48,514 bases of DNA from Pristiophorus japonicus (taxonomy: Eukaryota): positions 62,001 to 110,514 of the forward strand of contig NW_027250749.1 of NCBI RefSeq assembly GCF_044704955.1. The letters run 5' to 3'. Under the pieces are notes generated by a model. That model saw only the letters and a program-made list of their open reading frames with translations, did not search any database and was not told the DNA's origin. A program made the position numbers and the translations under genes. This document shows positions 26,301 to 43,263 of the stretch, piece after piece (position 1 is the first letter of the stretch; every line of letters starts with the position of its first letter).

Positions 26301-27460
26301 AACTGGTCTCTCGTTTCCCGCTTTTTGTCTGCCTTTTTTTTTAAAATAGGGGCGTTACATTTGCAGTTTTCCAATCTGCTGGGACTTCCCCAGAATCCAG
26401 GGAATGTTGGTATATTACAACCAGTGCATCTACTATCCCTGCCGCTACTTCTCTTAAGAGCTTAGGATGCAAGCCATCATGTCATGAGGATTTATCTGCC
26501 TTTAGACCCATTATCTTACTGAGTACCACCTCCATTGTGATTGTGTTAAGTTCTTCGCCCCCCCTCCCCCCTCCATTGCCCCTTGACTATCCACTGTTGG
26601 GATATTGTTAGTGTCCTCTACTGTAAAGACTGATACAAAATATTTGTTCAGAGTTTCTGCCATCTCCATGTTCCCCATTACTAATTCCCCGGTCGTGTCC
26701 TCTAAGGGACCAACATTTACTTTAGCCACTCTTCCTGTTTATATACCTAAAGAAACTCTTGCTATCTGTTTTTAAGGGAGGTTCAACCTGTACTTGAAAT
26801 GAAGGCACAGGTTTCACCCACTCAGTGTTGAAGGGGAGAATGTGGGGCAGTAATAATGTCCAATGAAGCCTTTTTTCCACAGCCTCAGAGATGTGATCAC
26901 ACAGTCACGGCAATGTTTGCACCGCAAGTTTAACGTTGGTGCATAACTAAAGTTCCATTGCAAATCCAGTGTCAGGATTTAACTCCACTCTGGAGTGAGG
27001 TGCAGTGAGAGTCAAAGTCCGACATTAATCCAGAGCGCCATTTGGATATCCTGTTAAAGGTGCTATATAAATGCAAGTTATTTTTATGCAGACAGGTACA
27101 GTGATCTTTCCTAAACAGGCAGCCAGGAGCCAAGTCATACTTAAAGCCAAACTCCAGCTCCCGTCTCACACCAGAAGTTGGTGTAAATGCACGCTGAATG
27201 GAATCTGCCAATATAATAATGCTGCTTCCTCTTCTGAGGCACACATGTTGAAATTGGATATTAATAAATTCAGCACATTGCTAGATCACTGCAGAATATG
27301 TATGTCTAACAGGACACGGTTTCGCAATCAGTAACAGAACCCATCAAAAGTCGAACATACTGAACCAAACATTCACTACTTCCGAACCAAACTGGAACAA
27401 GTACCTACACACAGAAGAGCAGAGGGTCAGAGTGAAAACCAGGAACATTTTACAGATCAT
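4871..27460 (-). CDS. Spliced gene model: non-rearranging VJ-type Ig-superfamily membrane receptor, L-VJ1-VJ2-TM-Cyt1-Cyt2 (VJ2 frameshifted; ~440 aa if repaired, 325 aa if VJ2 is skipped)
   Basis: Exons 27460-27409, 12357-12004, 7463-7129, 6986-6852, 6334-6261, 5233-4871. All introns GT..AG, intron phases 1/1/1/1/0 compatible; domain order is signal peptide, two V-set domains, TM helix, tyrosine-motif tail. Confidence 0.8.
5318..5580. mobile_element. tRNA-derived SINE head (+) interrupted in its B box by a CR1 3' end (-, 5379-5572)
   Basis: A-box TGGCTCAGTTGG; GTGTTCAA..TTCAAGTC with TTCAA duplicated at 5374-5378 and 5573-5577. Confidence 0.7.
6261..6334 (-). CDS. Exon 5, cytoplasmic exon with YENI motif
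   Basis: Acceptor tttcctttacag|, donor CAA|GTGAGT, 74 nt phase 1 to 0: [24 protein letters not shown]. Confidence 0.75.
6542..6782. mobile_element. Penelope-derived inverted-repeat element with 13-bp TSD
   Basis: Inverted AACAGAAAACGCTGGAAATACTCAG / CTGAGTGTTTCCAGTATTTTCTGTT; CCCTTCAATGACT at 6529-6541 and 6783-6795. Confidence 0.7.
6852..6986 (-). CDS. Exon 4, short stalk + transmembrane helix
   Basis: Acceptor ctctcactttcacag|, phase 1: [45 protein letters not shown]. Donor T|GTATGT at 6851 (the weakest site of the model); read-through would stop at 6838-6840. Confidence 0.82.
7129..7463 (-). pseudogene. Exon 3, germline-joined VJ Ig V-set domain 2 with ~10-nt frameshifting deletion near 7211
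   Basis: Acceptor ttcccattaaag|, donor A|GTAAGT, 335 nt (not a multiple of 3). [28 protein letters not shown] then frame change to [27 protein letters not shown]. Confidence 0.9.
7788..8318 (-). mobile_element. L2 LINE 3' end
   Basis: GCTATATAAATACCAGTTGTTGTT tail; homologous to 43785-44375, which encodes PITP..HWLPV.QR..FKIL. Confidence 0.8.
8735..9390. mobile_element. GC-rich non-autonomous DNA-transposon-like element
   Basis: Starts GGGCTGGATTTTCGG, same style of terminus as the other MITE-like blocks; no ORF homology. Confidence 0.35.
10435..10580 (+). mobile_element. DeuSINE (SacSINE1-like) 3' part
   Basis: GGGAGCTTGCTGTGC..TTGGCTGC..CATTACAACAGTGACTACAC..AAGTACTTCATTGGCTGTAAA; paralogous to 42875-43015. 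Confidence 0.75.
10610..11560. repeat. Compound (GA)n / GGCCACGATCGGGCGGGG satellite with assembly gap (N at 10690-10906)
   Basis: Directly visible; the long ORFs here are repeat artefacts. Confidence 0.95.
12004..12357 (-). CDS. Exon 2, intact germline-joined VJ Ig V-set domain 1
   Basis: Acceptor ttcacag|, donor A|GTAAGT, 354 nt. [55 protein letters not shown] has the canonical B-strand Cys, C-strand Trp, DxAxYxC and a J-like GxGT strand in one exon. Confidence 0.93.
12416..15050 (-). mobile_element. Internally deleted Gypsy LTR retrotransposon (3' LTR 12416-12615)
   Basis: LTR TGTTAT...ATAACA with adjacent poly-G PPT. Gag knuckles CWRCGGSH..C / [10 protein letters not shown] (~14930-15040), degenerate protease, RNase H ([10 protein letters not shown]) and integrase (CLLWG, GLP..VSDN) remnants; RT core and 5' LTR absent. 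Confidence 0.85.
15053..16830 (-). mobile_element. Tx1-clade LINE fragment (ORF1 end + ORF2 endonuclease)
   Basis: [16 protein letters not shown]2 start (~16150), [26 protein letters not shown]. Confidence 0.8.
16830..17245 (+). mobile_element. CR1 ORF2 C-terminal fragment
   Basis: [28 protein letters not shown]. Confidence 0.85.
17250..19605 (+). mobile_element. 5'-truncated CR1, ORF2 disrupted by stops/frameshifts
   Basis: ORFs 17372, 18006, 18564: [28 protein letters not shown]; same family as 30851-33187. Confidence 0.92.
19606..20205 (+). mobile_element. CR1 3' end with local duplication
   Basis: [32 protein letters not shown] tail. Confidence 0.85.
21108..21770. mobile_element. Two CR1 3' ends in opposite orientation (- 21108-21235; + 21240-21770)
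   Basis: Tail repeats at both outer ends; homologous to 19700-20205. Confidence 0.75.
21780..22430 (-). mobile_element. CR1 ORF2 endonuclease fragment
   Basis: [36 protein letters not shown]. Confidence 0.9.
23790..24460 (+). mobile_element. L2 LINE 3' fragment
   Basis: [19 protein letters not shown] and L2 tail. Confidence 0.75.
24493..24663. mobile_element. Penelope-derived inverted-repeat element
   Basis: AGAAAATGCTAGAAACATTCAGCAGGTCAG / CTGACCTGCTGAGTATTTCCAGCATTTTCT; same family as 6542-6782. Confidence 0.7.
24686..26790. mobile_element. Tigger/pogo-type MITE (TA TSD) with a CR1 inserted in its right TIR
   Basis: TA-CATGTTGAACCTCCCTTATCCAGAAC ... GTTCTGGATAAG[CR1]GGAGGTTCAACCTG-TA. 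Confidence 0.75.
25013..26772 (-). mobile_element. 5'-truncated CR1
   Basis: [22 protein letters not shown] ORFs; TAAG duplicated at 25009-25012 and 26773-26776. Confidence 0.9.
27409..27460 (-). CDS. Exon 1, signal-peptide leader [17 protein letters not shown](C)
   Basis: ATG at 27460, 17 codons + 1 nt, donor T|GTAGGT (phase 1). Joins VJ1 to give ...[17 protein letters not shown]. Shares ACTCTGACCCTCTG and 52-nt length with the plus-strand leader at 43212. Confidence 0.75.
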
Positions 27461-27749
27461 TCCAACTGGAAAGCGTGCCCCTGCAGCCACTAATCTATCA
27501 GACACTATAATCGATCAGATAAGCAGATGTTACTTGGTGACACCAGTTACTTGTGACAAATCATCAGGTGGTACGTAGAGGGAGGAGGGACAGATATCAT
27601 CAAAGCAAACAGGCTGACAAGACTTCAGTGATACTAAATGAAAAGGATAATACAATAATTGGGTTGTGCGTAAGGCAGCTTGGAAGCAAATTCCGAATTC
27701 TGGTCTAACTCCTTAACTGCAGTTATTTTCCCAGCTCCTGCTCCCACCA

Positions 27750-27817
27750 GAGGAACTGAGTGTTTCTACCCATTGTCAACAGTACCTTTTACATCTTCCA
27801 ATCTTCAAAATGTGGTT
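27750..27817 (-). promoter_or_regulatory. Candidate ETS/PU.1 and RUNX sites upstream of the receptor leader exon
   Basis: GAGGAA at 27750-27755 and TGTGGTT at 27811-27817 in unique DNA ~300-350 bp upstream of ATG 27460. Confidence 0.25.
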
Positions 27818-28889
27818 CCAGGGAAGCCAAGCTGATGAAAGAAAGTGATGCAAGGTTTACGAACCAATATAATGAATACAGGACAGCTACAAAAGGATAA
27901 ATAAGAGAGTAACAGAGTTAACTAGCAATAAAAACATAAAGGAAATAAGGCTTCAACAAGCATATTGGGTAGTGAGCAGGTAGTCAGGGCTACTGAGAGA
28001 TGGGGGAGGCAAAGGTCGTCGTGGGAGGGTGGGAATGAAAGAGATATGACATAAGGCCTTTGTCTCAGCTTTCATAGAGGAGGTGGTTATTGAGATGTAG
28101 AACCAGCAGAGGTGGGGGTTATTATTCACACACAGATTGGACACAACACACAACTTAAACTTAAGGTAGGTGGATGGTTTCCATCTCAGGATCTTGAGGG
28201 AAATGAGTGAAGAAATACTTCAAATGGGCACCCAGCACAAAGGGGCAGAAGGGGAAGCTCACATTAACGGTAACGATGGCACCTCTGCTTGGGCCCACAT
28301 GCCACCTTTGCCCCTATGTCCAGCTGCTTCCATGTTGCATCCTCACTAATTCCATCCTGGCATCTTACCTGTCCGAGCATCAGCACCGAGACGCCCATTA
28401 GTGAGGCACTGGACAGTGAGAAGGGTGATCACCAGGCGAACCACTAGTGAGAATGAAGACCGAGGAGTGGAAGAGAGGATCAGTACCGTTCCACCATGGC
28501 AGGAGGAGAAACAACAGTCCTCCACGAACGGCCCAGGCCAATGATTTGGGAGCATCAGTCTCGTGAGCAGCTGGTGGAGACACTTTCCACGCATGTGGTT
28601 GAGAGGATGAACAAGTGGGAGGAGTCCAGCACCAACATCTGCAACAATATTTATTCTTCCTGCACCTCCCAAAATGCCTCCTGAACTTCGACTTAGCTGC
28701 TGCCAGACTGATCAACCTACTCCTCCCCCTGAATACTTTTCTGCCAACTTGACTCCCCAGATTTCGAACCCCTCCCTCCCAAAATGGCGAGCTACCATAT
28801 GATTAATTATAACGTGCCTTCAGCTTGATGGTTCCATGCAAATGAGGCCTGACCCTGAAAATGAATCCGGCTTCTTACAGCCTACCTCA

Positions 28890-43016: not shown

Positions 43017-43059
43017 TGTGTGAATATGTTTTCCAGAGGACGGCCCACTTGCTCTTGTT

Positions 43060-43115
43060 ATTTGTTCCTCTTTATGTGGTTTGTACTTGAGCTGTGAGAA
43101 CCCTGTAAGGAAGTT
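43060..43115 (+). promoter_or_regulatory. Candidate haematopoietic promoter motifs (PU.1/ETS, RUNX, ETS) upstream of the paralog leader
   Basis: TTCCTC at 43065-43070, TGTGGTT at 43075-43081, AGGAAGT at 43108-43114, 100-150 bp upstream of the ATG; short motifs only. Confidence 0.3.
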
Positions 43116-43211
43116 CAGTGACAATCAGCTATCTCTGAAACATCGACGGTAGCATATTGTACAGTGTGTGAATGAACAGGAATTCCATCTTTTAAAAATA
43201 ATTAATTTGAA

Positions 43212-43263
43212 ATGTTTGGCCCGAGGCTCACAGCCGTGACTCTGACCCTCTGTGTCGCAGTGG
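43212..43263 (+). CDS. Leader exon of a divergently oriented paralog, MFGPRLTAVTLTLCVAV(x)
   Basis: ATG at 43212, 17 codons + 1 nt, consensus donor G|GTAAGT (phase 1), TLTLC core identical to the minus-strand leader. No matching V exon inside the window. Confidence 0.7.

Follow-up and report, generated by a model that had tools for sequence, protein, structure and literature searches.

What do two short signal-peptide exons lying head to head in the genome of the shark Pristiophorus japonicus belong to, and do they start a working pair of genes? The two exons, here leaders A and B, lie in a window of 48,514 nucleotides (NCBI RefSeq assembly GCF_044704955.1, contig NW_027250749.1, hereafter C137, positions 62,001 to 110,514 of the forward strand), for which a preliminary description had reported two phase-1 leaders of 52 nt pointing apart and had read them as evidence of a multigene cluster or receptor pair. 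We conclude with good confidence that both leaders are exons of a segmentally amplified shark cluster of tandem VJ (variable-joining) genes, which are likely paired receptors carrying either an immunoreceptor tyrosine-based inhibitory motif plus a switch motif (ITIM + ITSM) or an immunoreceptor tyrosine-based motif for activation (ITAM), and that the window holds a damaged head-to-head unit of this cluster.

The leaders stand where they had been described (Table 1), on opposite strands and transcribed away from each other, and they are real, paralogous signal-peptide exons. In register, 29 of 52 positions are identical, and after the ATG 26 of 49 match, a value equalled by 5 of 200,000 shuffles. 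The 14-mer ACTCTGACCCTCTG occurs in the window at leaders A and B and nowhere else; by itself it is weak, with some 9 chance pairs expected for a window of this size, and because it alone could be chance the kinship of the leaders is based on their in-register ATG, length and donor. A simple scan of the window for phase-1 leader-like exons returned seven candidates, three of them corresponding to leaders A and B. The last base of leader A before its donor is T instead of the usual G, as in 2 of the 12 A leaders compared, which likely weakens the donor. Exactly the leader B peptide starts 11 stored database proteins, with the first variable domain (V1) next in frame, and leader A starts none. 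Genome-wide, leader B has 32 matches and leader A has 16, all on contigs that also carry V exons, which rules out an origin of the leader motifs in an interspersed repeat; together with 544 candidate V exons, 150 of which were scored, these counts bear out the proposed multigene cluster, one anchor of which is the chromosome-scale contig C9 at ~4.4-6.2 Mb.

Homologue searches returned 61 and 116 proteins, of which the named ones (automatic names only) come from sharks, rays and Callorhinchus; the closest, 80-96% identical to V1, are labelled Pristiophorus japonicus. Members of the family thus far come from sharks, rays and one chimaera, and the protein searches gave none from a bony vertebrate. 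The only proteins outside the family in both searches were one T-cell receptor (TCR)-like protein and three immunoglobulin (Ig) light chains, and an ESM Atlas search with the family protein P0007 returned an unnamed cluster of its own and generic V-set clusters. Family members consist of a leader, one to nine VJ domains, an uncharged transmembrane segment and a tyrosine-bearing tail, and are encoded by non-rearranging, tandem germline-joined VJ exons; a rearranging locus was rejected, as no split V/J was seen among family exons.

The tails divide the family by predicted signal. Among 90 transmembrane-bearing homologues, 22 carry YxxL-x7-YxxL/I, one carries it with looser spacing, and 40 carry ITIM/ITSM without an ITAM or YxN motif. 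Adaptor-coupled activation was rejected. The family ITAM is cytoplasmic, and the transmembrane segment is charged in only 1 of the 90. In the genome, the ITIM + ITSM tail (type 1) is represented by 18 transmembrane exons, and a full inhibitory B gene, composed of a leader, V1, V2, V3, a transmembrane exon and three tail exons, was mapped on contig C2277. The type 2 tail (YENV + YxxL-x7-YxxL) is present in four genomic copies, with a full ITAM gene mapped on C3961. The type 2 ITAM fits the consensus D/E/NxxYxxL/I-x7-YxxL/I, and in the three genes read, out of four, its first tyrosine module is split by a 102-nt phase-0 intron. According to the available text of PMC4536121, classical ITAMs always have their first tyrosine module interrupted by an intron, and the available part of PMC2832619 gives this split as their hallmark. 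Leader B starts database proteins of both kinds, those with ITIM + ITSM and those with two-exon ITAM tails. As a separate observation, isoforms X1 and X2 of Mobula hypostoma LOC134350038 share the same leader and two V domains and carry either an ITIM/ITSM or an ITAM tail; opposite signals may be produced there by alternative splicing, or two genes may have been merged in the annotation.

The outer domains of the two kinds of receptor are closely similar: compared with V1 of nine ITIM genes, that of the four ITAM genes shows 82-96% identity (tails assigned by coordinates). The ratio of nonsynonymous to synonymous differences (pN/pS) was 2.27 in V1 (22 distinct open exons, 24 of the 30 fetched being open; only 1 of 2000 codon bootstraps failed to exceed 1), 3.75 in its loop resembling the second complementarity-determining region (CDR2) and 0.73 in V2 (24 distinct exons), all calculated pairwise, ignoring shared ancestry, on copies chosen for their likeness to the query (30 out of 40 scored) and on V1 and V2 sets that both include broken genes. 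In a single study, contigs from two runs of unrecorded kind (X6 and X7) join V1 to V2 across the predicted 4,540-nt GT-AG intron and do not show the leaders; since they contain letters missing from the V2 of the window, they derive from intact paralogues. The earlier proposal of paired activating and inhibitory receptors is supported for the family and not for the divergent A/B pair, leader B being common to genes of both kinds, ITAM and ITIM.

By analogy, the shark family most likely works like paired receptors of the CEACAM1/CEACAM3 type. As described in the available text of PMC2832619, these are likewise clustered genes with near-identical V-type outer domains evolving by birth and death, and they likewise oppose ITIM/ITSM tails to intrinsic ITAM tails, the ITAM being split by a phase-0 intron. 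Unlike CEACAMs, the shark ectodomain consists of 2-9 tandem antigen-receptor-like VJ domains with no IgC-like domain, and the searches gave no sequence kinship. Under such a scheme, the outer V1 would bind a variable ligand, either a self marker or a pathogen mimic; ITIM + ITSM forms would recruit SHP-1/SHP-2 and dampen the response, as in CEACAM-, SIRP- and Siglec-type systems, and ITAM forms would recruit Syk/ZAP70 directly with no adaptor, as in the CEACAM1/CEACAM3 systems. Under pathogen pressure V1 would change and duplication would recur; birth and death, by duplication, truncation and pseudogenisation, would yield units like that of the window.

The window's A/B pair is a damaged copy of a recurrent head-to-head unit and not a working pair. 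Gene A, starting with leader A, holds V and J within one exon with no intervening signal, and ends in a third type of tail that shares the type 2 exon layout up to the ITAM-splitting intron and has a different last exon, two YxN motifs and no second YxxL. Of the 19 genomic copies of its transmembrane exon, 18 were read, the remaining one being the window's twin. A V exon is broken in each of the 18: in 13, a divergent first V carries a stop or a frameshift and V2 a 7-nt gap, and the other five comprise two with a stop in V1, two with a 2-nt V2 deletion and the window with its 10-nt V2 deletion. Leader A is internally deleted in three copies, and V1, transmembrane and tail exons are open in three gene A copies. 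Intact type 3 orthologues with B-like leaders are annotated in six other sharks; as judged from these sequences, gene A is dead or reduced in Pristiophorus japonicus and intact in the other six.

By coordinates, 12 of the 16 A leaders lie head to head with a B leader, three are inverted A/A and one lies at a contig edge. Opposite those 12, eight B leaders have V1 12-32 kb downstream, three are orphans (two of them the same sequence) and one is cut by the contig end; the B genes facing A leaders end in an ITIM tail in six cases and in an ITAM tail in one. This recurrent arrangement, the six ITIM tails and one ITAM tail of the facing B genes, the ITAM-gene exon layout of the gene A tail (a 42-nt phase-0 exon ending in YM), the open exons of three gene A copies and the intact type 3 genes of other sharks would all agree with a unit that is itself, at least ancestrally, a co-regulated pair of opposite sign, with gene A surviving as a one-V form that skips V2. 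We nevertheless consider this unlikely. The A and B leaders are separated by 15.7-39.6 kb of repeats across copies, for which a bidirectional promoter was rejected; the V exon is broken in every gene A copy read, by four different lesions, some A leaders are themselves deleted, no stored protein starts with leader A, and duplication of one unit explains the recurrence. The head-to-head unit would thus recur by amplification as a block, one half being frameshifted and the other truncated in the window.

The second half, gene B, consists in the window of its leader. The preliminary description had expected a second family member to continue to the right, and had proposed a search for downstream VJ exons; the window, however, ends (48514) at the end of contig C137, and a near-identical copy on contig C2277 was therefore examined in place of the downstream DNA. 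C2277:242613-291052 is ~99.99% identical to the window over most of its length, and a profile built from homologous V domains found no V exon downstream of leader B in C2277:1-247837 (247.8 kb), so that a member continuing to the right is not supported for this copy, an outcome that the preliminary description had itself named as refuting. B is cut off ~4 kb downstream of its leader, at a 34-bp minisatellite, which the intact B gene on C2277 also has, 4.5 kb before V1. Contig C2898 holds a third copy, with a different type of gene A, that continues across this junction for 4 kb at 98% identity and contains no V exon in C2898:428-508 kb, over the 80 kb to the next leader. As neither copy provides a V exon, leader B is an orphan here, a state that most likely arose by a real rearrangement. 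The break at a minisatellite followed by a genome-wide repeat, the position of the contig end and the highly duplicated nature of the region could also be taken to indicate an assembly artefact, the gene continuing in the animal; the C2898 copy, which crosses the same junction and is followed by 80 kb with no V exon, makes this improbable.

The suggestion that genes A and B encode heterodimer partners, in the manner of Ig heavy and light chains or CD8 alpha and beta, found no evidence and is very improbable: the domains retain a J-like strand, GxGTxLxV, and WYRQ and YYC are preserved in V2, but on inspection by eye the glutamine of WYxQ is missing from V1 and the aromatic residue of FGxG is replaced by S in V2 (interface residues as generally described, not computed), the window transmembrane exon has no stalk cysteine, V1 and V2 are near-identical in A and B genes instead of forming complementary chains, and both genes are broken here.

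Besides the limits attached to the pN/pS values, several points weigh against the interpretation of the cluster as paired ITIM + ITSM and ITAM receptors with a damaged unit in the window. None of five ITAM-tail proteins gave a match to the Pfam ITAM family (E up to 0.5), and the database proteins are automated gene models. Splicing from leaders A and B is predicted, as are ligand binding and signalling by the shark VJ receptors. Copy numbers may include alleles or redundant assembly, given that many of the copies sit on contigs without a chromosomal place and that part of C2277 nearly matches C137. Finally, the phase 1-1 structure shared by all V exons means that gene A without its broken V2 would stay in frame and keep one V domain, and its death is accordingly not proven.

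Table 1. Features of the head-to-head unit, in window positions unless a contig is named.
Feature	Position	Strand	Remarks
Leader exon A (signal peptide, phase 1, gene A)	27460-27409	minus	52 nt; donor GTAGGT; 16 genomic matches; splicing predicted
Leader exon B (signal peptide, phase 1)	43212-43263	plus	52 nt; donor GTAAGT; peptide MFGPRLTAVTLTLCVAV; orphan in window copy
Spacer between leaders	27461..43211		15.7 kb, mostly fragments of long interspersed nuclear elements (LINEs) and a 67-bp minisatellite
V1, intact single-exon VJ domain, diversifying outer domain	12357-12004	minus	354 nt, phase 1-1; Pfam V-set E 1.2e-14
V2, single-exon VJ domain	7463-7129	minus	frameshifted by a 10-nt deletion near 7210
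Stalk and uncharged transmembrane exon (type 3 tail)	6986-6852	minus	19 genomic copies
Cytoplasmic exon with YENI motif	6334-6261	minus	
Two further gene A tail exons	~3 kb left of window, C137:59012-58971 and 146 nt beyond		
34-bp minisatellite, truncation point of B gene	46489-47272		similarity to intact B gene stops at right edge

Additional features were observed in and around the window. Its minisatellites include stretches at 3590-3954, 10600-11550 and 39141-39743 with 74-bp and 67-bp self-match spacing, and these regions include a purine-rich low-complexity tract around an N stretch; intron 1 of gene A contains a long terminal repeat (LTR) retroelement fragment (13000-16800, with an RNase H-like match). 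To the left of the window, C137:21615-48487 carries, on the plus strand, a frameshifted V1-V2 pseudogene with a remnant of the ITAM last exon and, on the minus strand, a decayed B-like leader that has lost its ATG. On other contigs, C2277:1-140000 shows tandem duplications nested in one another, among them a 39.8-kb block whose repeat is 99.95% identical, together with a 46-bp satellite, and C3961:20993-272840 holds an ITAM gene on the plus strand and an ITIM gene on the minus strand whose tails point towards each other. More divergent intact family VJ exons lie on C9 at 4.59, 1.01 and 0.66 Mb, extending the cluster over ~5.6 Mb.

Contig C9 also holds an unusual member of the family. At C9:4433088-4442210 (minus), a single 9,123-nt exon encodes a family V2 domain running into 208 copies of a 42-bp unit, each of 14 sequon-bearing codons resembling the J-like end, for a total of ~203 N-glycosylation sequons. 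This exon is open throughout, phase 1-1, with intact splice sites, and is single-copy in the genome. A counterpart is found in Chiloscyllium punctatum, where the partial protein P0118 (GCC39350.1) presents the same V followed by 14-residue N-rich repeats and is 42% identical. The lack of a stop in 2,936 codons of the stalk is only marginal with respect to chance (P 0.02-0.11), and there is no excess of silent variants (11/25 vs 51/96, in ~164 of the 208 units). A weak search of proteins of 701-2000 aa yielded no homologue of the stalk repeat, P0118 having emerged elsewhere among the homologues, and an ESM Atlas search gave no usable match. No family transmembrane exon follows within 78 kb and no leader was found. 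A 44-bp satellite of more than 30 kb lies upstream of this exon.

To elucidate the relationship of the shark VJ family to other receptors, we compared it with known systems, membership in four of which (NITRs, sigma-2, UrIg/PRARP and the CD28 family) failed on architecture. The closest V domain outside the family is that of the Ig sigma-2 (sigma-cart, NS5, type I) light chain, at 48% identity to V2. A profile search among 1.84 billion representatives returned, as best non-family domains, shark VJ-C1 light chains that cluster with a named Ig sigma-2 chain. An 85-domain tree joined the family, sigma-2 and coelacanth VJ-C1 at 97/93; a 71-domain tree with shark lambda, sigma and kappa added, from which 24 long or near-duplicate rows were dropped and whose bootstrap had not settled, left the relation between family and sigma-2 as an open fork and set lambda, sigma and kappa apart at 95/87. 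The shark family is not nested inside shark sigma-2 in either tree. UrIg, NCR3, PRARP and NITR stood outside both trees and were compared by description. The horn-shark sigma-2 chain found its best genomic matches in family V2 exons, at 48%, and no close sigma-2 light-chain locus appeared among the 150 candidates scored out of 1,522, a result that does not tell loss, masking and assembly gap apart. Unlike sigma-2, the shark family has no C1 domain, is membrane-anchored, and bears signalling tails, tandem V exons and a shorter CDR3-like loop; sigma-2 itself, according to the available text of PMC5985310, is germline-joined in several lineages.

Like the NITRs of ray-finned fish, as presented in the available part of bioRxiv 2021.06.11.448072, the family is multigene, with a single-exon V carrying a germline J-like motif and with inhibitory and activating forms. 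Unlike them, it lacks the six-cysteine I domain, all its domains being V-set with two canonical cysteines (by eye), and its activating forms would signal through a cytoplasmic ITAM and not through a charged transmembrane residue; no NITR was among the named matches of the homologue searches. The non-rearranging single-exon VJ is shared with UrIg/UrIg2, NCR3 (NKp30), PRARP and VJ genes of the CD28 family, as covered in the accessible text of PMC12227049, PMC10751288 and PMC11599192, which describes no tandem-VJ family with both ITAM and ITIM tails. The mapped shark genes have no C1 exon, unlike UrIg and PRARP, as these are described in that text, and differ likewise from single-V genes; with 2-9 V domains and no PPP, they also differ from CD28/CTLA4/PD-1, given in the same part of PMC11599192 as having a single V and a PPP-type CDR3 motif. 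On linkage to MHC or the TCR/IgH complex, looked for in view of UrIg/UrIg2 and PRARP, the observation is that in Cetorhinus the family and a TCR-like protein (labelled by reading) lie on contigs of different length. Skate MDIRs have I/C2-set domains related to CD300/pIgR. As side observations, contig C23 carries two exons with a family-like CDR2 region: a divergent germline-joined VJ exon at 8.90 Mb (L201:6841-7173), for which PDB searches returned engineered antibodies only and gave no identity, and a split V with a recombination signal at 3.51 Mb (L200:3023-3349).

We tentatively put forward that a germline-joined VJ exon of the sigma-2 lineage may have been recruited, before the shark/chimaera split, into innate paired receptors with their own ITAM or ITIM + ITSM tails, or that the family may be a surviving sister of the VJ receptor that preceded RAG, one member's J-like end forming a 208-unit N-glycosylated stalk also found in the bamboo shark. 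No published description of the shark VJ receptor family was found in the open-access literature, subscription journals and supplements being outside the scope of the search; new are the 9,123-nt exon on C9, the numbers of copies and what is said here of the state of the A/B pair. The window's head-to-head pair adds little beyond showing birth-and-death turnover. Relatives of the gene split by the RAG transposon are being looked for among VJ genes with a single exon (PMC12227049, available text), and the family offers a test of direction, from receptor to antibody or from antibody to receptor. Cartilaginous fish have innate receptor families of which the catalogue is still poor (PMC6795676, available text), and the family provides a testable candidate for paired receptors of natural killer (NK) type or of phagocytes in sharks. 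If its proposed origin is true, parts of adaptive receptors would have been recycled into innate immunity.

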